DNA of 64,000 nt from an uncultured bacterium (GCA_964576275.1 CAZNUN010000003.1:69848-133847), one strand, 5' to 3'. Counted from the stretch's first letter, positions 12,416 through 28,017 are shown. Notes: a model not told the origin generated them from the sequence alone. Program-made: numbers and translations.

Positions 12416-13634
12416 ATCAAATGCGGACCATGCGTGGTCATTTCCTTTACCAGGTAAGTTTTTACATTTACTCTGGGTAATTGCCTTACCCTTTCTGCTC
12501 CTGCCGGGGTGTTCTGAAAAAATCCCCACCTTGCCGCTGGAAAAAAATCTGGTCAGCTTCGATTCCGTCTCAGTCGCGGCGGATTTAATCGCGGATACGA
12601 CCATTTTAGGAGAACCATATGTCGGCTCGAATTCCTATCTGGTGGTGGGCGAGGATGCCAATATCAGCGCCTATGCCTTATTGCTGTTTGAAGAATTAAG
12701 CTCGCCGCTGGATACCATCGCAATCGATAATATACTCAGTTGCGAGCTCGTCCTGCGTACCTCCAGTTATCTGCCCGCCGATACGGCCGCTACTCCCAAT
12801 CTGAGCATGACGATCAGTTCACTGGAAGCTGATGGAGCTGAGGCCTGGACCGAAGACAGTACCAACAGTGCAAATTTCAGTCTCGACGCCTTTACTCAGA
12901 CTGAATGGCACACTTTTACTTATTCAGATACGGATACGCTGATTCTCGACCTGACGGCCTCATTTATCGCCAACTGGCGCGACACCGAAAAGTCTCATTA
13001 CGGCATCGCGATCAGACCCGCACCAGCTTCGGAGGCTGGACTGGGCATCATTTATTCCGGCGAAACCAGTTATTATCCCTATCTGAAGATCAGTTACATC
13101 GATTCGGATGGCGATACATTGACCGCAGCCTATACCACCGAAGAAGATGTGACTATCCTGACGTTTAAAAAGGACCTGAGCCCGGTTCCTCAGCCGCTCC
13201 TGATCAGTTCCGGAATGGCCTCTTTTACATTTCTGAAGTTCAGAGTCGAAGAATTGATCACGGATAAAAACCTTTTAATTGCCGGGGCTAATCTTTACTT
13301 AACCGTCAATCCGGATTTAACCGAAGATTACGGAAAATACTATACGGTCTATATCAGTCTGCTGGATTCGACCGACTGGGACGACCTGGCTTATACGCCC
13401 TCGACCTCGGATTATACCGCCACAATGAGCCGTTACCCGGGAGGTAGTCTTTTTGTGCTGAAGATCCCCAGCACCGTGCAGCTGTTTACCAGCGGATATA
13501 ACGGCAATTTCGGGATTGCCATGTGGATTTCATCCAGTAGTATGTATCCCGGGGTATTAAGTTTCTACCCGACTGAAAGTGCCGATCCGTCGTTGCGTCC
13601 GCATATGGAAATATTAACGATGCAGGAAGAATGA
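12384..13634 (+). CDS. Hypothetical lipoprotein, Ser/Thr/Asp-rich
   Basis: In-frame ATG at 12384. The hydrophobic segment LLWVIALPFLLLPGC ends in a Cys (possible lipobox). No recognisable domain. Start uncertain, since the track begins at 12351. Confidence 0.5.
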   Translation: MKSLILWNVYKSNADHAWSFPLPGKFLHLLWVIALPFLLLPGCSEKIPTLPLEKNLVSFDSVSVAADLIADTTILGEPYVGSNSYLVVGEDANISAYALLLFEELSSPLDTIAIDNILSCELVLRTSSYLPADTAATPNLSMTISSLEADGAEAWTEDSTNSANFSLDAFTQTEWHTFTYSDTDTLILDLTASFIANWRDTEKSHYGIAIRPAPASEAGLGIIYSGETSYYPYLKISYIDSDGDTLTAAYTTEEDVTILTFKKDLSPVPQPLLISSGMASFTFLKFRVEELITDKNLLIAGANLYLTVNPDLTEDYGKYYTVYISLLDSTDWDDLAYTPSTSDYTATMSRYPGGSLFVLKIPSTVQLFTSGYNGNFGIAMWISSSSMYPGVLSFYPTESADPSLRPHMEILTMQEE

Positions 13635-14857
13635 AAATAGGAATTAACATAATTGTACTGGTTGCAATCAGCACCCTGACTGGTTTGGCTCAGACCTCGT
13701 CTTATTCTTCGTATGGATTCGGCACGCAGGCCCCAGCTAACTCCGTCCGTTTGCAGGGAATGGGAAACTCCGGAATTGCCGTGCGAGACTCAATGAGTCT
13801 AAACCAATCCAATCCGGCGCTCTGGCAGGGATTCGGCAGCACGTCTTTGCAGGGACAATTATATTTCTCCAGCCTCGCGATTACCAAGCAGAACTACGTC
13901 GGCGGTATCTCGAACTTCTCGGGTTTTTCTTTTAAAATGCCGGTCGGCAAACGGGCCGGCCTGGCGATCGGTCTGGCGCCATTAACCAGAATGAAATCAT
14001 CTGTGGACTTTGCCGATTCGCTGGCGTTTCAGGGCGAACAGATCAATTACACTTCCACGGTCGAACTGAATGGCGGCCTCTCGGAATTGTTCGTCGGCGC
14101 CGGCTACCGGCTTTCCAATTGGCTTTCGGTCGGATTGAAAGCCAAGGTAATATTCGGTAATTATGTCGTGCGCAATCATACCGCACTGGTGTCGGATGAC
14201 AATGAAATTGACAGTTATTACAAGCGCTCCATTTCCATAAACGGTAATCAGATCAGCGGAGGTCTTCTCATTATCGATCCGGACGGGCGTTACAGCCTTG
14301 CGGCGGTCGTTGACATGGGTACCCGACTGAAAAGCTGGACGACAACTGAAAACAGTTACGGACCGGATACGACCACCCGCTCCGGCGCCATTGAATTTCC
14401 CACTTTCATCACAATTGGATCCAATCTGCAGGTTGCCAGAAATGTTGCCCTGAATGCCGACTTTAGATATGGTATATACGGGTCGAGCGTTTTTGAGAAT
14501 TTTTCCGTTTTTCCGCAGTTCAGCACTCAGAGCCGGAACTCGTTGGCGCTCGGGGTCGGCCTGGAGAAATCGGCGCGCCGCGCTCTGAGCGGCAACCTTT
14601 TCCAGAAAATAAGCTACCGCGTCGGCGGCTATTATCAGCGTGAGGCGATTTACCAGGATTCCGGGATCAGCGAATACGGAATGACCGCCGGACTTAGCCT
14701 GCCATATTTTAATAATTTGAATCGAATCGATTTAGCATTAACTTACGGAATTAGAAACGGCTTTTTATCAGATGATATTGGTAACGAAAATATATTTAGT
14801 GTTCATGTTGGAATCACGACGGGTGAGCCTTGGTTTCGCAGGTATAAGAGGCGTTGA
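13631..14857 (+). CDS. Outer-membrane beta-barrel, FadL/PorV-PorQ-like
   Basis: Signal peptide (VAISTLTGLAQT), alternating beta-strand pattern, and the N-proximal motif RLQGMGNSGIAV..NPALW. The same motif appears in the PorV-like protein at 18756. Confidence 0.5.
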   Translation: MKIGINIIVLVAISTLTGLAQTSSYSSYGFGTQAPANSVRLQGMGNSGIAVRDSMSLNQSNPALWQGFGSTSLQGQLYFSSLAITKQNYVGGISNFSGFSFKMPVGKRAGLAIGLAPLTRMKSSVDFADSLAFQGEQINYTSTVELNGGLSELFVGAGYRLSNWLSVGLKAKVIFGNYVVRNHTALVSDDNEIDSYYKRSISINGNQISGGLLIIDPDGRYSLAAVVDMGTRLKSWTTTENSYGPDTTTRSGAIEFPTFITIGSNLQVARNVALNADFRYGIYGSSVFENFSVFPQFSTQSRNSLALGVGLEKSARRALSGNLFQKISYRVGGYYQREAIYQDSGISEYGMTAGLSLPYFNNLNRIDLALTYGIRNGFLSDDIGNENIFSVHVGITTGEPWFRRYKRR

Positions 14858-14877
14858 AGATAATAAGAGGTGAGAAA

Positions 14878-16161
14878 ATGAAAGGATATTTTAAGGTACT
14901 ACTAATAATATGTGCAAGTCTGATGATCGCATTGGTCAGCTGTGTGCCCCCGGCATCGGATTCAGCCGAGCCGGTCGCTACTGCGCCAGCTCCTAAACCG
15001 ACCATAGACCGGGATAAATGCGATCTCTATCTGAGTTTTGCTTACAGTTACTATCAGAATCAGAACTGGAGAAGCGCCATAGATAATTATAAAAAAATGA
15101 GCAGCTACGGCTGCGACGAGGAATACGCTCAGGACGTATTCTCTTACTGGGGACGCGCCTATCAACAGCTGGCCGCCGAAAATAATGTCTATCTCGACAG
15201 CGCCCTTTACATTTATATGACTGGCGCCCAATACCTGCCGAATGATATTTTTCTGAAGAAAAACATCGCCTATATCTACCATCTTCAGGGTAAAACAGAC
15301 CTTGAAATCCGCGAATATGAAAAAATGATTGAACTTACTCCGGAAGATATTGAGCTTTACCGGACACTCGTCAAACTGTGCATCAATGCCCAGCGCTGGG
15401 ATGACGTCGTTTATGCCACGAATGAAATATTAAAACTGGCCCCCAACGATGAACAGGCTCTCAACGACCGCATTCTGGCTTATCAGAAAACCGGCAAAGA
15501 TATCACTACGATCCAACGGGAACAATGGGAACAAAATCCGACCAACGTGCGCTATGGCCTGGAATACGCCGCCGCCTTGAAGCAGCAACAGAATTATGAT
15601 GCTGCCCTGGGCGTGTATCAAAAAGTGGCTCAGCTGGAATTAAAAAATCTGGAAGTCTGGAATAGCATCGCCGATATTTATTTCACTCATAAAAACAATT
15701 ATACCGAAGCCCTGAAAGCCTATGAGCAAATCCTGAAAAATATTTCGCCGAAAGATATCAATGTCCTCGAAAGGGCGGCCAAATGTTGTCAGATGCTCAA
15801 TGATTTTCCAGCCGCCCTGAAATATGCCGAGACGGCCATTGCCGCCGCCCCCTCTTCTCCGCAGGCTTATAAAATCAGGGGCGATGTCTACTATGCCGCC
15901 GCAGATCATTTTACGGCCGGTCGCCAGATGAATTTTGAAGATAAGTTAGTTTTTAAACTGGCTTATGACGCTTACCGAAAAGTCGTCGAACTGGGCGACT
16001 CCGGCGTCAGCTCCCGGATCGATCACCTGAAAGAGTATCTGATTCCTACCCGCGAAGAGTGGTTCTTCAACCGCTATGATGCCGCCGGCAAAGCCCGGAC
16101 GAGTTACCGTCCGCTTAATCCGGATTACAACTGGATAACCAGCGAACCGACCAAGGATTAA
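14878..16161 (+). CDS. TPR-repeat lipoprotein
   Basis: ATG at 14878 follows a GAGGTGAG RBS. Lipoprotein signal with lipobox LVSC. Multiple TPR-like repeats. Confidence 0.7.
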   Translation: MKGYFKVLLIICASLMIALVSCVPPASDSAEPVATAPAPKPTIDRDKCDLYLSFAYSYYQNQNWRSAIDNYKKMSSYGCDEEYAQDVFSYWGRAYQQLAAENNVYLDSALYIYMTGAQYLPNDIFLKKNIAYIYHLQGKTDLEIREYEKMIELTPEDIELYRTLVKLCINAQRWDDVVYATNEILKLAPNDEQALNDRILAYQKTGKDITTIQREQWEQNPTNVRYGLEYAAALKQQQNYDAALGVYQKVAQLELKNLEVWNSIADIYFTHKNNYTEALKAYEQILKNISPKDINVLERAAKCCQMLNDFPAALKYAETAIAAAPSSPQAYKIRGDVYYAAADHFTAGRQMNFEDKLVFKLAYDAYRKVVELGDSGVSSRIDHLKEYLIPTREEWFFNRYDAAGKARTSYRPLNPDYNWITSEPTKD

Positions 16162-17920: not shown

Positions 17921-18370
17921 ATGCGTTGTCCATTTTGTAATTCGCCGGAAAGTAAGGTCATTGACTCACGCGCAGCCCAGAAGAACAATGCCATTCGTCG
18001 TCGGCGCGAGTGTATCGATTGTGGCCATCGCTTCACGACCTATGAATATGTCGTCGAATATCCGCTTCAGATCATAAAAAATGATGGGCGTCGGGAGGAA
18101 TACGATCGTAGTAAATTATCGGACAGTATCAAGATTGCCTGTAATAAACGTCCGGTCTCAGCAGAAAAACTGGAAACGTTGGTGATCGACATCGAAAAAG
18201 AAATCGAAGAGGCTTCCGGTGGCGAAGTGCGTTCCAGCCAGATCGGTGAGTTGGTAATGAAAAAACTGAAAGAGCTAGACGAGGTCGCCTATATCAGATT
18301 TGCCTCGGTCTATAAAAAATTTAAGGATCTCGACGAATTTAAAGATCATATCGAAAAATTCGGCGGCTGA
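17921..18370 (+). CDS. nrdR: Transcriptional repressor NrdR
   Basis: N-terminal zinc ribbon (MRCPFCNSPESKVIDSR...CIDCGHRFTTYE) followed by an ATP-cone domain. Confidence 0.95.
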   Translation: MRCPFCNSPESKVIDSRAAQKNNAIRRRRECIDCGHRFTTYEYVVEYPLQIIKNDGRREEYDRSKLSDSIKIACNKRPVSAEKLETLVIDIEKEIEEASGGEVRSSQIGELVMKKLKELDEVAYIRFASVYKKFKDLDEFKDHIEKFGG

Positions 18371-18446
18371 TTCAAAAAAGCGCCCCCGGAACAAATAATC
18401 TGACGGAGAGTAAGATAAACATTCATAATAAAAAGAGAGATGAGAA

Positions 18447-18611
18447 ATGATATCCCAGGAATTACTCGATATATTAGCCTGTCCGCAATGCAAGGGCATT
18501 TTGGAATATGACGTTGAAAATCAGAAATTGATCTGTCAGGCCTGCCGTCTGAAGTATCCCATCAGGGACGATATACCGATCATGTTGGTCGAAGAAGCCG
18601 AACACTTTTAA
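18447..18611 (+). CDS. Trm112/YcaR (UPF0434) zinc-ribbon protein, 54 aa, missed by the ORF track
   Basis: [17 protein letters not shown]...[24 protein letters not shown] aligns closely with E. coli YcaR (LLEIVACPVCNG...LICK...PLRDGIPVLL). Confidence 0.75.
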
Positions 18612-18755
18612 CTAAATCCAGGAGTTAATCCCCGCCGCCGGTTGTTAAATCACGCACATTATTTCCGATAATTAATCTTCGTAAAAATTACCTGTTTGTG
18701 TATATTACCCGAACCGAAAGGATTGTGTTCGGTTTTCTGTTCTTAGGAGGTTTCG

Positions 18756-20018
18756 ATGAAAAAAATATTCGCCATGCTCGGGATCGGATTGCTCATGACC
18801 GGCAGCGTACTCGCCCAGAGCGAAGCCGGGGCGGTGTGGTTATTGATCAATCCCGGAGCGCGCTATTCCGGTATGGGCGAGGTCGGTGTAGCTATGACCG
18901 ACGACGCCTACGCCAGCTACTGGAATCCGGCAGCGCTGGGATTCCTGCGCGGCCGGGAAGCGGCGCTGACGCACACCAACTGGCTCCCGAACCTGGTCAA
19001 TGACATATACTATGAGTTTTTAGGCTATCGTCAATTTGTAAAAGATGTCGGCACTCTCGGCGGCAATGTTATTCTGATGAATCTCGGCGAACAGACCCGC
19101 ACGGATGAGTACGGCAATGAATTGGGAACCTTTAATTCCTATATGCTGGCCATAACGGGTTCATACGGCACGGCTTTATCGCGTCGATCTTCGCTCGGTA
19201 TCAGTATCAAGATGGTGCATCAGCACCTGACCGACCAGGGCGCCGGCAAGGAAAAAGGAAAAGGCTACTCAACCAATTTTTGCTTTGATGTCGCTTACCT
19301 GAAGCATCAGTTTCTGACCAAAAACCTGACCCTGGGTGTCAATTTTGCCAACATCGGGCCGAAGATCGCCTTCATCGATGTCAATCAGGCCGATCCGATG
19401 CCGACCAATATGAAAGCCGGATTGGCCTATACACTTGACGGCGAATATAATAAGCTGACCATCTCTTACGATGTCAATAAAGTTCTTGTTTCGGCCTATC
19501 CCAACCGCGATATTGACGGCGACGAACGTGTCGGCGGCTACGATGAAAACGGTCATAAGGTCTCCGGCGGTGAATATAATAAGGACGGTCAGCGGGAATA
19601 TGCCCATTCTGACGAATGGTATACCGGTATTTTTACCTCCTGGATCGATGACTGGCTATTAATTTACGATTCCGAGAATGATGGCATCGGCAAAGATGTC
19701 GGCGGTGGTTTGAATCAATATGGTGAAAAGGCCGATACGGATGGTAACACCAATGACGGATCATTGGGCGCCGAATTTAAAAAATTAACTCATAATTTTG
19801 GCATAGAATACTGGTATTCGGATCTGTTCGCGATCCGGGTCGGAGGGATTTATGACAAGACCGGGAACATTACCATGAAAAATGGTAAATGGCCGGTTCC
19901 GACCTTCGGCGCCGGACTGCGCTGGGCCGGAATGGGATTTGACTTCGGTTATACCGCCGGCGAACCCGGACACCCGCGCCAGAATACGATGCTGTTCTCG
20001 ATGAATATCAAATTTTAG
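18756..20018 (+). CDS. T9SS PorV-like (FadL-like) outer-membrane beta-barrel
   Basis: GGAGG RBS and signal peptide. The N-terminal motif GARYSGMGEVGVAMTDDAYASYWNPAAL is characteristic of PorV/LptO-type barrels. The next gene encodes a T9SS CTD cargo protein. Confidence 0.55.
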   Translation: MKKIFAMLGIGLLMTGSVLAQSEAGAVWLLINPGARYSGMGEVGVAMTDDAYASYWNPAALGFLRGREAALTHTNWLPNLVNDIYYEFLGYRQFVKDVGTLGGNVILMNLGEQTRTDEYGNELGTFNSYMLAITGSYGTALSRRSSLGISIKMVHQHLTDQGAGKEKGKGYSTNFCFDVAYLKHQFLTKNLTLGVNFANIGPKIAFIDVNQADPMPTNMKAGLAYTLDGEYNKLTISYDVNKVLVSAYPNRDIDGDERVGGYDENGHKVSGGEYNKDGQREYAHSDEWYTGIFTSWIDDWLLIYDSENDGIGKDVGGGLNQYGEKADTDGNTNDGSLGAEFKKLTHNFGIEYWYSDLFAIRVGGIYDKTGNITMKNGKWPVPTFGAGLRWAGMGFDFGYTAGEPGHPRQNTMLFSMNIKF

Positions 20019-20076: not shown

Positions 20077-23000
20077 ATGCAGATAAATAAATATTTTATT
20101 AACATAATAGTCCTGTTGGCTTTTATAAGCGGATCAGCTGCGGCAATGATGGAGCCGGCTTACCGTATCGCTTCTCCATCTCAGCCGTCGATGGCGATTT
20201 CCAATCCGATCCGGATTTGCGCCCTGCGGATCAGCTTCCTGCCTGATGATGATGAGACCACCACGGGAACCGGACAGTTTCTTACAACGGTAGTTGATCA
20301 TCCCTGCGACGAGTTTGTCGTCGATCCGGCTCCGCATAACCGCGCCTATTTCCAGGATCATATCCGCTCTCTGGCGAATTATTACCAAACCGTATCGGAC
20401 GGGAAGGTAAACATTGATACCCTTAATTCAACGGTCTTTCCTTTAACGGATGACAGCAGTTTCCAGGTCGGTCATGCGATGGCTTATTATCATCCGTTCT
20501 TGGTTGAAGATTCGGTTGATTTACGCCTGAGCGAACTGTTGGTGGATGCCGTGCAGGCCGCCGATCCGGTCGTGGATTTTTCACAATTCGATCTGGTGGT
20601 GGTATTCCATGCCGGGGTCGGTCAGGATTTTGCGATTACGCTCGATCCGACGCCTTATGATATTCCGTCGGCCTATATGAACAAGAATGATTTGAAGGCC
20701 CTGTTGTCTCCCGGCGATCCGGATTTTGAAGGTCTGCCGGTTGAGAACGGGACGGCTTTTGTTACCTGTGGACTGATCCTGCCGGAGAGCCAGAATCATT
20801 TGCTTTACGATAATTACGAAGAAGTTTTCGGCAGTGGTGAATCGGTCTGCGAATATCAGTTCGGGCTGAATGGCACTTTTGCCTTCACCTTCGGTTTTTT
20901 TCTCGGGCTGCCGAGTCTCTATAATACCGAAACCGGCTATACCGGTATCGGCCGTTTCGGTTTAATGGATCAGGGTTCGGCTAACCTGAACGGTTTGGTT
21001 CCGTCTGTTCCCAACGCCTGGGAGCGTGTTTTTCTGGGTTGGGAAACGCCGGCCGTGGTCGGAAAATTTGCGGATGTCAGTCTTGAAAAAGCCGGTTCCG
21101 GCGCCGGCACGACCGTCTGGAAAATTCCTATCAACTCCCATGAATATTTTTTAATTGAAAATCGCTGCGCCTGGTTTCGCCCAGGAGTCAGTCTCGACAG
21201 CCTCCAGTATCAGATTTACATGGCGGGTGGCGAAAAGAACTGGCCGTCGGCCTTTCCGCTGATTCGGGACACCCTGAAAGCCGTGTTTTCTACGGAAACC
21301 GGAGTGATGTTATCCGTTCCGCACTATGATTACGGGATTCCCGGCTCGGGGCTCCTGATCTGGCATATTGACGAGACAATTATCAACGCCAATCTGTCCA
21401 CCAACCGGGTCAATGTCGATCGCGATCGGCGCGGCGTTGATCTGGAAGAAGGCGATGGCGCTCAGGACCTCGGCTATGACGCCGACATTCTGAATGAAGA
21501 CGTCGAAGACGGCTGGTTTTTCGATCCGTGGTTTGCCGGCAACGACGGCTTCATCGATCTTAATCCGGAATATGAGTTGGATGCGGAAAAACGGGTGGGC
21601 TTTACCCCGTACACCAATCCGTCATCCTGCAGTAACAGTTTTGCGTTTACCGGGATTTATGTTGACAGCATCGGACCAGCCGGCGAAACGATGACTTTTC
21701 GGATCACCTTGAAAAATGCGCTGGATAATTTTCCACTGATTTTTGCGAGCCAGCCGGAAGAAATCTTACCCATTGATCTGAATCCAGCCGATCAAACGGA
21801 AGAAATTCTGGTAATTGGCGACAGTCTGTGGATTTTCAGCCCTGACGGTGAACGCGTGGCGGTGTCTCCGGCCGATTCCATCAATGTGATTAGTGACAGC
21901 CTGATATTGTACGGTCTCGGGGGCGAATCCCTGTCAGCCCGCCAACTGGCCGCTGACGGACAAATTATGCTGATTGACACTCTCTACATGCCAGGATGGC
22001 AATTTTACGGCCGACCGTTACCGGTCAAGACCGGCTTGCTGTCCGCCGCGCAAAACAGCGCCCGGCAGAATTTTCTAATCTACTATCAACCGGAACTGCA
22101 TACCGTTTCGGCTTTTTCGATCGATGAGTCCATCGAAAAAATAATCGGCGGCGATGACAATCTGTTTGCGGCTACCAGTGACGAGCGGGTCAGGCGCATC
22201 CGGCTGGATCCATTTTCGGCGGAGGTCGTGAGCAACCTGCCAAAGGCGGGCGACGGCACGCTGGCGACGGCCTTTATTAACGCGGATACCTTTCCCGATC
22301 TGATCCATTGTAGTGATTCGCTCCTGACGCTGATTCTGGATATTGGAAGCGACAATGAGACCACCCTGAGCAAGATGGTGAAATTAAACGGTAATTTAGC
22401 CCTGGCTGACCTTGACGGTGACGGTAAAATCGAGATCATCGTCGCCGGCTCCAATCAGATTTATGCGTACAATGAAGAACTCACGCTTGAAAGTAATTTT
22501 CCGGTCAGCCTGCCGTTCATTCTGGGCGGCGATCAATTCGGCGTAGAATTGCTATCCGCCGATCTGGATGGCGACGACAACGGTGATATTATCATCAATA
22601 CCTCGGCGGCGCTGCTGGCATTTAATTACAAAGGCGAGCTGCTGGAAAATTTTCCTAAAGTGGTCGACTCCTCTCCAAAGCCATTGACCGGGATGCTGTT
22701 CAATACGCCTCACGGACTGGCTTATCTGGCTGCTATGCAGGCAGACGGTGCCATCGATTATTACAATCGGTTGATGGCCACTATCATCACATCTCACGCT
22801 CACGAAACGGGTGACTGGATCTGTTATGGAGGCGGCGGCAACCGCCAATTTTATTGTGCTACTGCTTCGCAGAGCGGCGCTGTTGAAGATGAGACGCTTT
22901 TAGATCAAGCCCGAACATTTAACTGGCCGAATCCGGTAAAAGACGACCACACCTTTATCCGCTATTTCCCAAATCACAATTGCGATATCACGATCACTGT

Positions 23001-23181
23001 TTATGATTTGGCGGGAAGTCTGATCGCCAGCTTCAAGGATTCGGCGCCGCTGATCGGCGAACCTAACGAGAAAGAGTGGAACACCGCCGGGGTGGCCAGC
23101 GGAGTTTATTTCGCTGTGGTGAAGGCGAAATCCGGTGCTAAAAGCGAGTCCAAGATCGTTAAAATTCTGGTGGTGAATTAA
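20077..23181 (+). CDS. T9SS-secreted protein (1034 aa): M6 immune-inhibitor-A-like domain with degenerate active site, FG-GAP/VCBS-like repeats, and a T9SS C-terminal sorting domain
   Basis: Signal peptide is present. The M6 motif HEYGHNLGLPDEY is replaced by FTFGFFLGLPSLY (nt 20881-20922). Repeats are of the form DLDGDGKIEIIVAG / DLDGDDNGDIIIN. The C-terminal 85 aa match the Por_Secre_tail (WPNPV...ITITVYDLAG...GVYFAVVKA...KIVKILVV). Confidence 0.7.
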   Translation: MQINKYFINIIVLLAFISGSAAAMMEPAYRIASPSQPSMAISNPIRICALRISFLPDDDETTTGTGQFLTTVVDHPCDEFVVDPAPHNRAYFQDHIRSLANYYQTVSDGKVNIDTLNSTVFPLTDDSSFQVGHAMAYYHPFLVEDSVDLRLSELLVDAVQAADPVVDFSQFDLVVVFHAGVGQDFAITLDPTPYDIPSAYMNKNDLKALLSPGDPDFEGLPVENGTAFVTCGLILPESQNHLLYDNYEEVFGSGESVCEYQFGLNGTFAFTFGFFLGLPSLYNTETGYTGIGRFGLMDQGSANLNGLVPSVPNAWERVFLGWETPAVVGKFADVSLEKAGSGAGTTVWKIPINSHEYFLIENRCAWFRPGVSLDSLQYQIYMAGGEKNWPSAFPLIRDTLKAVFSTETGVMLSVPHYDYGIPGSGLLIWHIDETIINANLSTNRVNVDRDRRGVDLEEGDGAQDLGYDADILNEDVEDGWFFDPWFAGNDGFIDLNPEYELDAEKRVGFTPYTNPSSCSNSFAFTGIYVDSIGPAGETMTFRITLKNALDNFPLIFASQPEEILPIDLNPADQTEEILVIGDSLWIFSPDGERVAVSPADSINVISDSLILYGLGGESLSARQLAADGQIMLIDTLYMPGWQFYGRPLPVKTGLLSAAQNSARQNFLIYYQPELHTVSAFSIDESIEKIIGGDDNLFAATSDERVRRIRLDPFSAEVVSNLPKAGDGTLATAFINADTFPDLIHCSDSLLTLILDIGSDNETTLSKMVKLNGNLALADLDGDGKIEIIVAGSNQIYAYNEELTLESNFPVSLPFILGGDQFGVELLSADLDGDDNGDIIINTSAALLAFNYKGELLENFPKVVDSSPKPLTGMLFNTPHGLAYLAAMQADGAIDYYNRLMATIITSHAHETGDWICYGGGGNRQFYCATASQSGAVEDETLLDQARTFNWPNPVKDDHTFIRYFPNHNCDITITVYDLAGSLIASFKDSAPLIGEPNEKEWNTAGVASGVYFAVVKAKSGAKSESKIVKILVVN

Positions 23182-26100
23182 TGATCGGCCGTATGCGGTG
23201 GGCGGCTGGGTTCGCGCTACTGAATCTGCTCTTTTTTTTTGACCAGGCGAGCGCGCAGTTCGGCACTTTCAATCACCCGGAGCTGCGTTGGTTGACTTTT
23301 GAAACCGCTCATTTCAAAGTGCATTACCACACGGGGGCGGAATGGACGGCGCGGCGCACCGCCGAAGTCGCCGAAACCGTTTACGGGCCGGTGACCGAAT
23401 TTTACCATTTCGAACCCGACGAAAAAACCGCTCTGATTATCAAAGATACCGACGATATTTCCAACGGCGCGGCTTATTATTATGACAACAAGATCGAAAT
23501 CTGGGCAACGCCTTTAGATTTCCCGATGCGGGGCAATCATGATTGGATTCGCGACGTGCTTACCCACGAATTCACCCATATCATTTCCCTACAGAAGGCG
23601 ATGAAGTACGGCCGTTCGCTGCCGGCATTTTATTTTCAGGTCATTGATAATGAACCTGAGAAGCGCGAAGATGTGATTTACGGCTACCCGCGCGTGATCG
23701 CTTCCTATCCGATTGCCGGGATGGTAATTCCAATGTGGCTGGCAGAGGGCATGGCGCAATATATGTTCCCCGGCACTTCCAATGATTTCTGGGATACCCA
23801 TCGCGACATGCTCTTGCGCGACCGCGTTCTGCATAAAGATTTACTAACCCTGCGGGAAATGGGTTCGTTCGGCAAACCCGGGCTGGGCAACGAAACGGTT
23901 TATAATCAGGGCTATGCTTTCGTGCGTTATCTAGCAGAACGTTTTGGCACACCGACAATTCCGAATTTATCGCAGGAACTATCCAAACCGCAGCGGATGT
24001 CGATCGAAACCGCGCTGAAAAATGTCACGGGTGTGGAGGCTGACCAAATCTATAACGACTGGAAAACGGAACTCGAGAAGAAGTATTTCCGGCAAACTGA
24101 AATTCTCCGCGCCAACGAAAAGCCCGGAGAGGCGATTCTGGCGGAAGGCACCATGCAAATGGCGCCGGAGTGGAGCGGCGATTCGCTGATCTATTATTTG
24201 TCCAATAAAGGCCGGGACTACTATTCGCAGACCGGTTTATATGTTTACGATGTCAAAACCCATAAGAGTCGCCTGCTGATCCCGCGGATTTATTCACGGG
24301 TTGCGGTGGCGCCGGATGGAAAGTGCATTTATTATTCGCGCGCCAGCGATCCGGACAAACACGGCTCGGTCTTTTTCGATATTTATTCCTGGGATACCCG
24401 GAAGCGCAAGGAAAAACGCATTACCAAAGGTTTACGCGCCTACAATCCGGCGCTTTCACCGGACGGCCAAATGATGGCCTATGTCACCGGCCGCGATGGC
24501 ACCAGTAATCTTTGCGTGATGGATATGAATACCAAATCCACCCGTCAGGTCACCCATTTTAGCGACGGTGTCGAAGTTTTCACCATTCACTGGTCGCCGG
24601 ACGGCCAAACGATCGCCTTCGACTATCTGACCGGCCACGGACGCGACCTTGCCCTGATTGAAGTGGCAACCGACTCTCTGCGCATCTTCAACAATGCAGC
24701 CTTCGATACGCGAAATCCATATTTCAGTCCGGACGGCGCCTGGCTCTATTACGCCTCGGACGAGACTGGCGTTTACAATATTTACCGGCAGGCGCTGACC
24801 GACGGCGAAAAACAGATTCTGACCAACGTCACCGGCGGCGCTTTTATGCCGACTGTCAATGCGCGGGGCGAGCTGCTATATGCGATTCTGGATAATTCCG
24901 CCTTTAAAATTGCCAGGATGAATAATCCGGAGCCCTATGACCCGGCTCTGGCAGCCTATTACGATTACGCTAAACCAGCAATGCCGGTTTCGGAACTGAA
25001 GCCGATTTCCTTTCCTCAGCCGCAAAAGTATAAAGATCAATTTGCTAAAATGTTTTTCCTGCCGCGTATTCTGATCGAATACGGCACGATCAAACCCGGT
25101 TTTTACTGCTACTCGAATGAAATCTTAAATCGTTTTAATATTTTCGGCGGCGCTTCCGTCAACCGCATCATGGACCGCGACCTGGTGCTGATGCTCGAAT
25201 ATCACCAGTGGGAACCGACTTTTTTCCTGGAATTCTACAATATCAGCCGCCATATTTTTAACCAACATACTACTTATGCTGCACGTCCTGTTACTATGGA
25301 CTATACATTTTTTTTAACAGAAGCCTATGCCGGAATTTCCAGGCCGCTTGATGGCTTCAATAATTTGCGTTTAGATTTAAAATGGGCGCGTTATCGGACA
25401 GCGGCAGAAGAAACGATTGCATCGGAAAATTATCGCGGAAGCCTGTCTTATGATTATTATCATGGTGTCGATTTCCAATTGCGCTGGCAGCTGCGCAAGA
25501 TCCTGCCGACCGTGAACGAGGATACCAATCCCGACAACGGTTTTGTGCTGGATACTTACATTTCCCGCAACTACGATAAATTTATTCAAGGCTTTGAAGT
25601 TAATGCGGATTACAGTACGCTTCAGGTCGATTTCCGCAACAATTATTACTGGCGGATCGAGCACGAAGGGAACTGGTTCCACAAATATCCGGTTTTGCGG
25701 AATCTGGTCGGTACGCTGAAATGGCGGGCGGGCTGGATTTCGAAGCCGGACGTTGATTCGTTTTTCAATTTCTTTGCGGGCGGAATGCCCGGTCTGCGCG
25801 GCTATCCTTATTACAGTCTGGAAGGGCGCAACCTGTTCAGTCTGCATTATACTTGGCGGGTGCCGATTTTCCGTCAGAAAAATTTTCAGTTAATGACATT
25901 CAATTTGCATAATGCCTTTTTAGCGACTTATATTGAAGCCGGAAACGCCTGGAATAAGGTATCCGGTTTTGCAGGTCTCGATTGGGAACAATTTAAAGCT
26001 CAGCCCGTTTCTGTCTTACGCAGTATCGCGGGTGATTTTAAAAGAGATGTAGGTTTGCAATTACGTATGAGCGGACATTCATTTTACGCCTATCCCACTT

Positions 26101-26216
26101 CGATCAGTCTGGATTGGGTTTACGGTTTGGACGCCTTCGATATCGTCAGCGGTTCGAAAACCTATTCGTATGGTCACGAATGGCGAACTTACGTCACAAT
26201 TTTATTCGGTTTATAA
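23181..26216 (+). CDS. Secreted 1011-aa fusion of an HExxH metallopeptidase-like domain, TolB-like PD40 beta-propeller repeats, and a C-terminal Omp85/BamA-like beta-barrel
   Basis: Signal peptide is present. HEFTH lies at nt 23565-23579. PD40 repeats include YSRASDPD, NPALSPDGQMMAY, HWSPDGQTIAF and NPYFSPDGAWLYY. The C-terminal roughly 400 aa show beta-strand periodicity and an Omp85 loop-6-like GGMPGLRGY motif. The start overlaps the upstream stop (TAATG). Confidence 0.65.
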   Translation: MIGRMRWAAGFALLNLLFFFDQASAQFGTFNHPELRWLTFETAHFKVHYHTGAEWTARRTAEVAETVYGPVTEFYHFEPDEKTALIIKDTDDISNGAAYYYDNKIEIWATPLDFPMRGNHDWIRDVLTHEFTHIISLQKAMKYGRSLPAFYFQVIDNEPEKREDVIYGYPRVIASYPIAGMVIPMWLAEGMAQYMFPGTSNDFWDTHRDMLLRDRVLHKDLLTLREMGSFGKPGLGNETVYNQGYAFVRYLAERFGTPTIPNLSQELSKPQRMSIETALKNVTGVEADQIYNDWKTELEKKYFRQTEILRANEKPGEAILAEGTMQMAPEWSGDSLIYYLSNKGRDYYSQTGLYVYDVKTHKSRLLIPRIYSRVAVAPDGKCIYYSRASDPDKHGSVFFDIYSWDTRKRKEKRITKGLRAYNPALSPDGQMMAYVTGRDGTSNLCVMDMNTKSTRQVTHFSDGVEVFTIHWSPDGQTIAFDYLTGHGRDLALIEVATDSLRIFNNAAFDTRNPYFSPDGAWLYYASDETGVYNIYRQALTDGEKQILTNVTGGAFMPTVNARGELLYAILDNSAFKIARMNNPEPYDPALAAYYDYAKPAMPVSELKPISFPQPQKYKDQFAKMFFLPRILIEYGTIKPGFYCYSNEILNRFNIFGGASVNRIMDRDLVLMLEYHQWEPTFFLEFYNISRHIFNQHTTYAARPVTMDYTFFLTEAYAGISRPLDGFNNLRLDLKWARYRTAAEETIASENYRGSLSYDYYHGVDFQLRWQLRKILPTVNEDTNPDNGFVLDTYISRNYDKFIQGFEVNADYSTLQVDFRNNYYWRIEHEGNWFHKYPVLRNLVGTLKWRAGWISKPDVDSFFNFFAGGMPGLRGYPYYSLEGRNLFSLHYTWRVPIFRQKNFQLMTFNLHNAFLATYIEAGNAWNKVSGFAGLDWEQFKAQPVSVLRSIAGDFKRDVGLQLRMSGHSFYAYPTSISLDWVYGLDAFDIVSGSKTYSYGHEWRTYVTILFGL

Positions 26217-26226
26217 AGGAGGTCAC

Positions 26227-27126
26227 ATGAAGCCCAGATATTTGCAAATGGCGCTGCTGTTGAGTCTGATGTTGCCGCTCTGGCTTTTCGGGCAGCCGCT
26301 GGCCGGCGACAATCCGAACATTACGGAGCGCGAGCGGGCTGTCTATAATTTAAAATATGCCCAGACCGAGCCGGATACTTTTGAATTCAGCTATCAAAAA
26401 TCACCTGGTCTGGCTTTTCTGCTATCGGCGGCCGTGCCGGGCGCCGGTGAATTTTATTCGGGAGCCAAATACCGGGCCGCGGCTTTCTTCGGCGTGGAGG
26501 TAATTTCCTGGATCGTTTATTTCAATCGTAAGAGTGTCGGCGAGCAACTCGAAAAAGATTACAAAAAGTGGGCCGACACTTACTGGAATGCCTGGAATTG
26601 GTATGCCAACGGTCTGACTCATCGGCCTTATCTGGGTATCCCCGATTCCACGGAAGAAGCCTCGCATCTGATTTACTTTGAATATAATGGGGAAGAGTAT
26701 CCATCCAACACCGATTATCTTGATGAAAACCTCAATGGCTGGGAATCGCTGCTGGAATCCGGCGAATTGGCTCCGATCAAGACCCGCGATTATTATGAAA
26801 ATATCGGCAAATACGATCAGTTCGCTTCCGGATGGGCGGATTTTAATACGATCGAAGCCGATATGGATACGAGCATTATTCCAAACAGCGCCAGGCGCTC
26901 GAATTACCTCAATCAGCGCTACGATTCCAACCAGGCTTTAAAGATGGCGACTAACTTTGCCACGGTGGTCATGTTCAATCACCTGATCAGCGCCTTTCAT
27001 GCCCAGATTGCGGCTAAACAATATCGCGGACCTGATAAAAAAGAAATTACCTGGAATGTGGGTCTGGTGACAGACTATACGTATAAAAATCCCATTCGCG
27101 GGTTGACGCTCTCCTTTGCATTTTAA
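26227..27126 (+). CDS. Hypothetical secreted / outer-membrane protein
   Basis: ATG at 26227 follows an AAGGAGG RBS. Signal peptide is present. The C-terminus ends in aromatic residues (LTLSFAF), as outer-membrane proteins often do. No known domain recognised. Confidence 0.5.
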   Translation: MKPRYLQMALLLSLMLPLWLFGQPLAGDNPNITERERAVYNLKYAQTEPDTFEFSYQKSPGLAFLLSAAVPGAGEFYSGAKYRAAAFFGVEVISWIVYFNRKSVGEQLEKDYKKWADTYWNAWNWYANGLTHRPYLGIPDSTEEASHLIYFEYNGEEYPSNTDYLDENLNGWESLLESGELAPIKTRDYYENIGKYDQFASGWADFNTIEADMDTSIIPNSARRSNYLNQRYDSNQALKMATNFATVVMFNHLISAFHAQIAAKQYRGPDKKEITWNVGLVTDYTYKNPIRGLTLSFAF

Positions 27127-27216
27127 ATCAGCGGGTGCGCAGTAATATTACCGGATTTGTATTTTAAGCAGGATAATTTCCCGATGGGAACCGACAGGAG
27201 AAAAAACAGAATACTA

Positions 27217-28017
27217 ATGAGAAAAATCTTAAACACCGCCGGGCTGACAATAGGCGGTATCCTGATAATGATGTTAAGCGGCTGTGCCTCTCAAAAACTG
27301 AAGCCGATGCCGGATTTCGACCAGCAATTCAAGGATGGTATGGCCGAGTTCAACAAGAAAAAATGGGATAAAGCCATCGAACATTTTACCTTGGTCGTCA
27401 TCAATACGCCGGGTGGCGAGCTAGCCGACGATGCTCAGTTTTATCTCGGCGAGTGTTACTTCGGCCGTAAAGAGTATCTTCTGGCAATTTCAGAATACGA
27501 GCAGGTGATCAATAGATACGCTTATAGCGAATATGTCGAAGAAGCCGCCTATAAAATTGCCCTGGCGGAACTGAAATCCTCGCCGCGCTACCAGCTCGAA
27601 CAAGAATATTCACTGAAGGCCTTGCAGAGTTTTCAGGATTTTTTAGACACTTATCCGAACAGCAGATTCAAAGCGGATGCCGAGCAGAAAATCACCGAAA
27701 TCCGCTCGAAATTAGCCCGCAAGGTTTTCGAAAGCGGACGACTGTACCGCAAACTCCAGGAGTACAGTGCGGCGATCATTTACCTGGATAAGGTTCTGGA
27801 GCAGTATTACGATACCGAATGGGCCGAGAAAGCCCGGCTGGAGAAAGCCTATTGCCTGATCCGTTTGCGCGAATTCGATCAGTATGAACTTTTACTGAAA
27901 GAAATCAGCGCTCGCGCCACGCCCCAGACCGACCCGAACGCCATTGAATATCTGCACGTTTCACACCGCAAAGAACTTCGCAGAATCGAGAAGGAACAAC
28001 GTCGGAAAGAAGAATAA
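27217..28017 (+). CDS. bamD: Outer-membrane protein assembly factor BamD (YfiO), a TPR lipoprotein
   Basis: Lipoprotein signal with lipobox LSGC. The TPR/YfiO pattern is present (DDAQFYLGECYFGRKEY...NSRFKADAEQKI). An alternative start lies at 27184. Confidence 0.75.
   Translation: MRKILNTAGLTIGGILIMMLSGCASQKLKPMPDFDQQFKDGMAEFNKKKWDKAIEHFTLVVINTPGGELADDAQFYLGECYFGRKEYLLAISEYEQVINRYAYSEYVEEAAYKIALAELKSSPRYQLEQEYSLKALQSFQDFLDTYPNSRFKADAEQKITEIRSKLARKVFESGRLYRKLQEYSAAIIYLDKVLEQYYDTEWAEKARLEKAYCLIRLREFDQYELLLKEISARATPQTDPNAIEYLHVSHRKELRRIEKEQRRKEE

Follow-up and report, generated by a model that had tools for sequence, protein, structure and literature searches.

A porV-linked, predicted M6-fold pseudo-protease with a type A T9SS sorting domain in Marinimicrobia and other FCB phyla

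The gene directly downstream of porV in a 64,000-nucleotide stretch of DNA from an uncultured bacterium (the window) encodes a protein, here called M6i, that is by prediction exported through Sec and then the T9SS and that joins an M6 (immune inhibitor A) metzincin fold to a beta-propeller and a type A C-terminal sorting domain (CTD). We are highly confident of four points taken jointly: that the M6 module is dead, that M6i is an export protein of three modules, that it is an orthologue of the NCBI family NF052323, and that its gene is linked to porV. The whole explanation that we prefer adds to this dead, exported M6-fold protein a PorV-associated accessory role in the T9SS, and we lean toward it, if only slightly.

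The M6i ORF runs from 20077 to 23181 on the + strand, stop codon included, and encodes 1034 aa, exactly as given in a preliminary description of this DNA. Its N-terminus, MQINKYFINIIVLLAFISGSAAA, had been called a signal peptide and does read as one of the Sec type (aa 1-23, 20077..20145, +); in the AlphaFold model (pLDDT 85.5, pTM 0.83), a helix occupies aa 4-21 and is followed by a low-confidence linker. Public copies of M6i are either unnamed or called "T9SS type A sorting domain-containing protein," because they score under the equivalog cutoff of NF052323. The public protein P0001 is 100% identical to M6i but starts at M24, without the signal peptide.

The T9SS sorting domain claimed in the preliminary description lies at aa 948-1034 (22918..23178, +) and is of type A: PF18962 (Pfam; aa 950-1028, 30.8 bits versus a cutoff of 27) and TIGR04183 (33.5 bits versus a cutoff of 23) both exceed their curated cutoffs. 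The structure model has a beta-sandwich at aa 948-1032, and the M6i family profile matched the CTD of PorU (6za2) with an E value of 1.3e-4. M6i thus has both attributes of a T9SS type A substrate, the Sec signal peptide and the type A CTD. The motifs of this CTD are ordinary ones for type A, with no feature that favors retention over cleavage. The FG-GAP/VCBS-like DLDGDG repeats that had also been described stand only in part, as there are just two DLDGD loops, of the calcium type, at aa 778 and 829, and both Pfam matches fall just short of their cutoffs (FG-GAP_3, 25.8 versus 26.9). These loops belong to what the structure model presents as a full beta-propeller (aa about 556-940, 21742..22896, +).

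The N-terminal module is the catalytically degenerate M6/InhA-fold domain (aa about 41-545, 20197..21711, +). HMM searches, profile alignment, and fold agree on the claimed M6 similarity, which is far above chance. TIGR03296 (M6 domain) matched M6i with an E value of 3.2e-19 and 69.9 bits, short of its cutoff of 110.8; a profile of 71 homologues scored 34-88 bits against three genuine M6 proteases from plasmids; and the catalytic region has the InhA-type fold. A Pfam scan of M6i returned no match to Peptidase_M6 (PF05547) and only a sub-threshold match to M11.

Where M6 proteases carry the zinc-binding motif HExxHxxGxxD, M6i carries FTFGFFLGLPS (aa 270-280, 20884..20916, +), which sits on helix 264-276 of the model. 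Real M6 proteins have SHEFGHFLGLPD and AHELGHSFGLPD in columns that align one to one with it, and F270, T271, F274, and S280 of M6i stand in the places of H, E, H, and D. The motif column is the one originally named, with GTFAFTFGFFLGLPSLYN aligned to GVFSHEFGHFLGLPDLYD of genuine M6 proteases, although the coordinates need a small correction: bases 20881-20922 give AFTFGFFLGLPSLY, and the 13-mer first described begins one codon later, at 20884. Loss of both His and the Glu had been claimed, and the alignment adds the third ligand, Asp, to the losses. It had also been claimed that the protein has no other HExxH, and indeed neither HExxH nor HxxEH occurs anywhere in its 1034 aa. Alignment to M6 proteins, the check that had been proposed, places no intact ligands elsewhere, and the motif scan and the alignments together rule out that the motif was mis-aligned and that an intact site lies at another position. 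With other residues in place of the catalytic Glu and of all three zinc ligands, no zinc peptidase function should be possible, and the lost ligands and general base support the catalytically dead pseudo-protease of the preliminary description as a prediction. EYFLIENR, GLPGSGLxxWHID, and the Met-turn are common to M6i and active M6 proteins; M297 of the Met-turn, in GLMDQGS (20965..20967, +), aligns with the LM of the active proteins, and Met is found there in 78 of 80 species and in 136 of 139 cluster representatives. Since these elements are kept, the fold and cleft scaffold are preserved rather than decaying.

The known family to which M6i belongs is NF052323, which matched it with an E value of 1.5e-165 and 552.9 bits, below the equivalog cutoff of 600; the best matched stretch (aa 8-557) covers the N-terminal half, and one further stretch was reported. 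Syntenic counterparts in Balneolaceae, Ignavibacterium, and KSB1 scored 1182.6, 1016.5, and 658.6 bits, respectively, versus the same 600, and RefSeq gives the family name to cultured Balneolales orthologues. Three loci (L074, L059, and L016), whose M6i genes exceed the cutoff, share with the window the gene order porV, M6i, a zincin-propeller-barrel gene, and a fourth gene. On these comparisons, M6i is a divergent Marinimicrobia orthologue of NF052323. The pseudo-protease reading is accordingly not new, NCBI having come independently to an inactivated-protease name, and the call alone adds little; annotation misses the M6i orthologue by 47 bits. We found no paper on, or experimental characterisation of, the NF052323 family in the literature.

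PorV is the shuttle of the T9SS and the anchor for type A CTDs. Its orthologue in the window, a FadL-like outer-membrane barrel encoded directly upstream of M6i (18756..20018, +), scored 244 bits with the PorV/PorQ family NF033709 (cutoff 90), matched Pfam PorV at 4e-28, and reached 190.8 of the 250 bits set for the PorV equivalog, a cutoff that its Balneolaceae and Ignavibacterium counterparts exceed (292 and 260 bits). NCBIfam "PorV2" was also considered for this barrel and was ruled out at 49 bits versus a cutoff of 325. Among the loci with sufficient flank, M6i lies directly 3' of porV in 69 of 69. In at least 21 loci, tblastn found a PorU-like gene directly before porV, and the lineages with this porU-porV-M6i order are Ignavibacteria, Balneolia, Rhodothermales, LCP-89, and KSB1; three of the PorU-like neighbors scored 744-1077 bits with the sortase model NF033707 (cutoff 420). 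No PorU was found in the 64-kb window or in the Marinimicrobia loci, porU adjacency being seen only in the other phyla, and the window contained no further T9SS genes, its remainder being housekeeping. The Marinimicrobia cassette is situated among BAM genes, namely a BamG-family gene (13631-14857) and BamD (27157-28017). Literature searches on the T9SS in Marinimicrobia and on porU/porV neighborhoods outside Bacteroidia yielded nothing specific.

Because the position of M6i after porV is invariant in 69/69 loci, a T9SS-linked accessory role fits better than a niche-specific adhesin. We tentatively suggest, at rather less than even confidence, that M6i is a non-catalytic accessory of the T9SS, working on its outer-membrane, attachment side, and not an ordinary cargo protein or adhesin. 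M6i would be exported through the T9SS and would remain at the cell surface, docked most likely on PorV via its CTD, which might stay uncleaved, as for PorU and PorZ in Porphyromonas. The former substrate cleft, which is conserved, and the propeller could then act as binding surfaces for cargo, for a glycolipid, or for a neighboring barrel protein. As a counterpoint, adjacency to porV need not mean a shared complex and can also arise when an abundant cargo is co-expressed with its shuttle.

That counterpoint leads to the alternative that survives best, although we consider it somewhat unlikely: M6i may be ordinary T9SS cargo, a stand-alone adhesin or coat protein with a dead protease cleft and an FG-GAP-type propeller that is cleaved by PorU and anchored, with its place beside porV reflecting co-expression as a major housekeeping substrate. 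The preliminary description had favored this kind of role, suggesting an adhesin or binding module. The canonical type A motifs of the CTD are what this would predict, "T9SS-dependent" in the NCBI name implies cargo, and what occupies the former metal site differs from clade to clade. Adhesins, however, are usually lineage-specific, multi-copy, and fast-evolving, whereas the length of M6i (about 900-1090 aa) and its three-module layout are constant across several phyla. Equally hard to square with ordinary cargo are the post-porV position, held without exception, and the conserved downstream partner, whose start overlaps the M6i stop in the window.

This downstream partner (23181..26216, +) is a protein of 1011 aa with a signal peptide, a zincin, a TolB-like propeller, and a putative Omp85-like barrel, and the stop codon of M6i and its own start codon share the sequence TAATG. 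The protein matches Peptidase_MA_2 and PD40; its zincin has an intact HEFTH (aa 129-133), and HExxH is kept in 120/120 of its homologues. TolB matched at 1.8e-17, and a Foldseek search with the AlphaFold model (pLDDT 90.1) gave TolB as best match and recovered only the TolB-like propeller. Assignment of the barrel to the Omp85-like type draws on the model and on weak matches: the strands of the model (about 16), a GLRGY loop, a weak TamA barrel match (E = 0.14), and a PF01103 annotation carried by one homologue together suggest it. The protein is apparently not the genome's BamA. The zincin-propeller-barrel gene directly follows M6i in 53 of 58 loci and is absent there from the other 5. Behind it, in 47 of 49 loci, comes the fourth cassette gene (26224..27126, +), the translation of which gives about 300 aa from M19, with a signal peptide and the ending ...LSFAF; it had a weak, sub-cutoff DUF5683-like match in Pfam (E = 0.0077) and no match in an NCBIfam search.

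So regular an association invites the idea that M6i is a dedicated partner or client of the barrel protein, for example the surface cap or substrate receptor of a two-partner outer-membrane module in which recognition would fall to the dead M6 domain and proteolysis to the live zincin, PorV being only the export shuttle. The barrel gene's frequency downstream and the codon overlap speak for such a partnership, as does the contrast between the zincin site, intact in every homologue, and the dead site of M6i; so do the BAM genes around the Marinimicrobia cassette (BamG-family and BamD) and the BAM-T9SS link noted in Bacteroidota (PMC12611786). We nevertheless regard it as improbable. Five loci have porU-porV-M6i without the barrel gene, which makes the PorV link the tighter of the two. 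Furthermore, if the barrel protein is oriented as Omp85 proteins are, its zincin and propeller should face the periplasm, with M6i outside the cell, so direct contact between the domains is not obvious.

Conservation across the family supports the preferred reading of M6i as a dead module that has been retained. At E <= 1e-30, relatives of M6i fall into 1410 clusters (50% identity), and relatives occur in at least 504 GTDB species; the most distant homologues share 26-35% identity, and the columns are on average 41% identical. To judge from these sequences, the full-length ORF is under purifying selection. A decaying pseudogene was ruled out, for the ORF is unbroken and has been conserved across hundreds of species. 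Motif columns were tallied with hmmalign, which replaced a regex that had missed the motif in 27/80 loci. Glu is missing from the catalytic Glu column in all 80 species, all 139 cluster representatives, and all 120 Balneolales homologues; the loss thus extends to every homologue tallied, in answer to the check on orthologues that had been proposed, and its universality in the family indicates that it is ancient. The metal-site residues differ by clade: Marinimicrobia have L/F-M-F-P, Balneolales A-S-S-D, and some KSB1 H-Q-H-S, and this variation argues that the exact spot is not a conserved new binding site. A few KSB1-type members retain both His, as HQxxH. It is very improbable that M6i is still an enzyme, neo-functionalised rather than dead and using other residues or chemistry on the M6 scaffold, for although a set of polar residues is invariant (H87, H178, D190, D195, E237, D298, E356, E361, H430, D432, E458, and D460) and those few KSB1-type proteins keep their His pair, in no member examined does the Glu column supply a general base, most clades have hydrophobic residues in place of the metal-site ones, and the largest conserved blocks (FHAGxG, EYFLIENR, WHID, and MDQGS) belong to the ancestral scaffold and not to a new site, since active M6 proteases share them. 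M6i is thus a clean case of an ancient pseudoenzyme, with zinc-site relics that differ by clade.

The mechanism of the T9SS has been worked out almost wholly in Porphyromonas and Flavobacterium. A bolder form of the accessory role, which we put forward as speculation and think rather unlikely, is that M6i is an unrecognised structural subunit of the T9SS attachment/sorting module in Marinimicrobia, Ignavibacteria, Balneolia/Rhodothermales, KSB1, LCP-89, and Calditrichota: an unrelated pseudo-protease doing a PorZ-like job, tethered to PorV through an uncleaved CTD and acting with a new type of Omp85-like barrel. The periplasmic part of the barrel protein would then be a live zincin with a TolB-type propeller, and porU precedes the cassette in several phyla. 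If this were true, porV, M6i, the barrel gene, and the fourth gene would constitute a new T9SS or outer-membrane biogenesis module. What is new here is the porV-M6i-barrel linkage across FCB phyla, which we found described in no publication. It makes the cassette a testable candidate for a T9SS/outer-membrane accessory module, with cultivable carriers that include Gracilimonas and Balneola.

Of the known systems, the closest is NF052323 itself, the "T9SS-dependent M6-like inactivated metalloprotease" (T9SSA_dep_M6i), which has 1043 model positions to the 1034 aa of M6i and has in common with it the three-module architecture, the dead motif column, and the type A CTD. The MEROPS M6 proteins, such as InhA of Bacillus and PrtV of Vibrio cholerae, resemble M6i in the GLP turn that follows the active-site helix and in being multi-domain and secreted, as is predicted for M6i. 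They differ in that M6i lacks the zinc site and the general base, and the M6 proteins compared lack the propeller and T9SS CTD that form the C-terminal modules of M6i. The downstream partner can be compared with the Omp85 family (BamA, TamA): in the model its C-terminus forms a barrel of about 16 strands, and its GLRGY loop resembles loop 6 of Omp85, but where Omp85 proteins carry POTRA domains, it carries a zincin and a TolB-like propeller.

PorU and PorZ offer the comparison that bears on the proposed role. In Porphyromonas, both are at once cargo and components of the T9SS; neither loses its CTD, and the barrels PorV and PorQ hold them in place; PorZ, composed of propellers and a CTD, is non-enzymatic and binds A-LPS, and porU adjoins porV in Porphyromonas gingivalis (PMC8545088, PMC5445135). 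PorZ has also been reported to resemble BT4663. Propellers dominated a Foldseek search with full-length M6i, in which BT4663 was the top PDB match, but with TM-scores of 0.14-0.18 this may be a generic propeller hit, and we discarded it as a sign of PorZ kinship. M6i is like PorZ and PorU in having a propeller and a CTD and in being encoded next to porV or porU-porV. At the level of sequence they are distinct, as M6i scored 19.5 bits with PorZ (NF052228; cutoff 260), in a match confined to the CTD, and 19.3 bits with PorU, with no similarity outside the CTD. The architectures also diverge, PorZ having two propellers, whereas M6i combines a single propeller with a dead protease domain.

The M6i gene, which encodes the M6-like T9SS cargo of this locus, is present as claimed, with an open reading frame at 20077..23181 (+) that encodes 1034 aa. 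Its N-terminus, MQINKYFINIIVLLAFISGSAAA, reads as a typical Sec signal peptide, and its C-terminus passes both curated models of the type A T9SS sorting domain (CTD) (PF18962, 30.8 bits against a cutoff of 27; TIGR04183, 33.5 bits against a cutoff of 23). M6i is a Sec- and T9SS-addressed protein, as the preliminary description had it at both ends. A signal peptide is a requirement for a T9SS substrate. The identical public protein, P0001 (1011 aa), begins at the internal Met24 (position 20146 instead of 20077), and this annotated start leaves it without a signal peptide; the longer start chosen originally is therefore the better one, and that of the public record is probably a start-codon mis-call.

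The FG-GAP/DLDGDG repeats also described for this protein held up in part. The two FG-GAP-type Pfam matches both fall slightly below cutoff and there are only two DLDGD loops (aa 778 and 829), but the AlphaFold model, which is of high confidence (mean pLDDT 85.5, pTM 0.83), contains, at about aa 556-940, a beta-propeller that is complete, and after it the beta-sandwich of the CTD. Two loops have a pLDDT of <50: aa 183-195 (positions 20623-20661), with invariant D190, P191, T192, D195, I196, and S198, and aa 465-480 (positions 21469-21516), with invariant G466 and G479. Conserved but unmodelled, these loops could be candidate partner-binding sites.

M6i is related to the M6 proteases, and its degenerate motif stands at the true zinc-site column, both as first proposed. 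The Pfam Peptidase_M6 model, named beforehand as the means of checking this, does not match M6i, and PDB sequence searches with M6i did not reach InhA; the relationship was instead confirmed through TIGR03296, the NCBIfam M6 domain, which matches aa 90-363 (E = 3.2e-19), and, together with the motif column, through a profile built from 71 M6i homologues. Three genuine M6 proteases taken from plasmid records (Bacillus toyonensis WP_215596053, a Sinorhizobium protein, and a Phyllobacterium ORF) aligned to this profile with 88, 72, and 34 bits, and GtfAlmlGFylGLPgLyd of the profile stands over GVFSHEFGHFLGLPDLYD and AHELGHSFGLPDLYG of the genuine enzymes. Bases 20881-20922 translate to AFTFGFFLGLPSLY. 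PMC3890501 describes which general zinc-ligand and catalytic roles HExxHxxGxxD has, and places M6 in MEROPS subclan MA(M). In the H, E, H, and D columns of this motif, M6i has F270, T271, F274, and S280, while the Gly, the GLP turn, and the Met-turn methionine (M297) are kept. A motif search of the whole protein found neither HExxH, in line with the earlier reading, nor HxxEH. The scaffold is intact, as the EYFLIENR and GLPGSGLLIWHID blocks are common to active M6 enzymes; on its sequence, it would be unable to bind the catalytic zinc or to activate water.

The same pseudo-protease reading already exists as a curated name. NCBIfam NF052323, "T9SS-dependent M6-like inactivated metalloprotease," matches M6i with E = 1.5e-165, and its 552.9 bits lie below the 600-bit equivalog cutoff; the syntenic genes of one genome each of Balneolaceae, Ignavibacterium, and KSB1 reach 1183, 1017, and 659 bits. 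M6i is thus an orthologue from Marinimicrobia too divergent to reach the cutoff, and the match together with the syntenic orthologues makes the original interpretation correct and coincident with curated annotation. RefSeq and UniRef give the family name to Gracilimonas and Balneola proteins; close public copies of M6i are nameless or have just the label "T9SS type A sorting domain-containing protein." A literature search found no papers on the family. NF052323 is numbered consecutively with NF052324 and NF052325, the other two being "putative T9SS sortase PorU2" and "putative type IX sorting system protein PorV2," and a single neighbourhood study may lie behind the curation of all three. The neighbours in the M6i loci examined are ordinary PorU and PorV, not PorU2 and PorV2.

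Loss of the active site is conserved in orthologues, a check suggested at the outset. The catalytic Glu (column 271) is absent from all 80 species of the genome collection (M 47, N 10, S 10, L 8, others), from 139 further representatives of 50%-identity clusters, and from 120 Balneolales homologues, and no sequence of these three sets has the H-E-H-D quartet. The zinc-site Asp survives in Ignavibacteria and Balneolia orthologues (LGLPDLF) and the second His in some lineages; a few KSB1-type proteins have HQxxH...S, and Marinimicrobia orthologues have hydrophobic residues throughout the former zinc site. Two loci, L037 (a KSB1 single-cell genome) and L056, carry AHQFGH[FY][LF]GLPS, in which both His are kept, Glu is replaced by Gln, and the third-ligand Asp by Ser; five further cluster representatives share this minority H-Q-H-S pattern, perhaps a halfway state on the path to inactivation. 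The Met-turn methionine is retained in 78/80 species and in 136/139 representatives. A decaying gene is ruled out by numerous homologues (relatives in at least 504 GTDB species; 1410 representative clusters at E <= 1e-30) and full-length ORFs with a mean column identity of 41%. M6i is an old pseudoenzyme under selective maintenance.

Gene order was compared across 80 loci from different species, counting those with enough flank. A gene of the PorV/PorQ barrel family (18756-20018 here) lies directly upstream of M6i in 69/69 loci, and the M6i gene has been tied to porV through deep evolutionary time. By tblastn, at least 21 loci have a PorU-like gene directly before porV, and these porU-porV-M6i loci belong to Ignavibacteria, Balneolia, Rhodothermales, LCP-89, and KSB1. 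Three of the PorU-like genes score 744-1077 bits against sortase model NF033707 (cutoff 420), and the two PorV genes tested at such loci pass the PorV equivalog cutoff. In Marinimicrobia loci porU is not adjacent to porV, and it is absent from the window. There the upstream genes are a BamG-family gene (13631-14857, +; 177 bits, below its cutoff), a TPR protein gene (14854-16161, +), glyA, nrdR, and a Trm112-like ORF, with BamD downstream (27157-28017, +). With the BamG-family, TPR, and BamD genes on its flanks, the Marinimicrobia cassette is thus set among genes of outer-membrane biogenesis; the Bacteroidota-type BAM complex has BamG and BamD among its core components (PMC12611786). Between glyA and porV stand the NrdR-like regulator gene (17922-18372, +) and the small Trm112/YcaR-like zinc-ribbon ORF (18448-18612, +), both read directly from the sequence; they appear unrelated to the cassette, whose upstream intergenic region is about 140 nt. 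The remaining genes of the window are housekeeping (PBP2, RodA, purH, dnaE, pckG, asnB).

Downstream lies a gene at 23181-26216 (+) whose start codon takes its first base from the end of the M6i stop codon (TAATG). Its 1011-aa product is of unusual build. Behind a signal peptide it has a zincin domain (Peptidase_MA_2), with HEFTH at aa 129-133 and a glutamate in WLAEG; next comes a TolB-like beta-propeller, and the C-terminal part is an Omp85-like barrel that has about 16 long strands and a GLRGY loop. HExxH is intact in 120/120 homologues. One homologue carries Pfam Omp85, the match of the profile to the TamA barrel is weak (E = 0.14), and the protein has no POTRA domains and matches no curated NCBIfam equivalog. 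PF26549 and PF26550 are carried by homologues. The product of the fourth gene (26170-27126, +; probable start 26224), about 300 aa long, has a signal peptide, a C-terminal Phe (...LSFAF), and a weak DUF5683-like match; the gene follows that of the barrel protein in 47/49 loci. M6i might be a dedicated partner of the zincin-barrel protein, given the codon overlap and their adjacency in 53/58 loci; this idea is weakened by the five loci without the barrel gene, which keep porV-M6i (a PorU-sized ORF lies upstream in 3/5), and by the expectation that the domains of the two proteins lie on opposite sides. The five (L052, L066, L067, L071, and L073) are Ignavibacteria and Bacteroidota MAGs; the gene downstream of M6i is about 367 aa in L066, L071, and L073, and the ORFs there are about 640 and 500 aa in L052 and L067.

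Propeller matches that include Bap1 and integrin alpha would be in keeping with a plain adhesin or a coat cargo; against this stand the unvarying architecture of M6i and the fixed position of its gene. A neo-enzyme is unlikely, since the largest of the conserved blocks go back to the M6 ancestor.

The kind of protein is already known, from a curated family with the same functional reading, of which M6i is a new sub-threshold member. We found no description of the obligate porV linkage, the frequent porU-porV-M6i arrangement, or the unusual barrel partner; on account of these, the family is a concrete candidate for an uncharacterised module, of the T9SS or of the outer membrane, in FCB phyla beyond the well-studied Bacteroidia. 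We infer that M6i serves the T9SS on its outer-membrane side as a non-catalytic accessory and is not a lineage-specific adhesin. Some caution is due: porV adjacency could arise if a major cargo is co-expressed with its shuttle, the former metal site is filled differently in different clades, and the CTD has no unusual features. The further-reaching view of M6i as a new structural subunit of the T9SS seems rather improbable.

PorU and PorZ of Porphyromonas offer a precedent for such an accessory, being T9SS cargo and T9SS components alike; both retain the CTD, and the barrels PorV and PorQ hold them at the surface. PorZ, built from propellers and a CTD, has no enzymatic function and brings A-LPS to PorU (PMC8545088, PMC5445135). 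M6i differs from PorZ in having no similarity to it outside the CTD, and its top Foldseek match, BT4663, has very low TM-scores. Its build is nonetheless like that of PorZ and PorU, with binding modules followed by a CTD, and on this precedent we propose that M6i would dock on PorV through its CTD, while its preserved cleft and propeller might bind cargo, surface glycolipid, or the neighbouring barrel protein.
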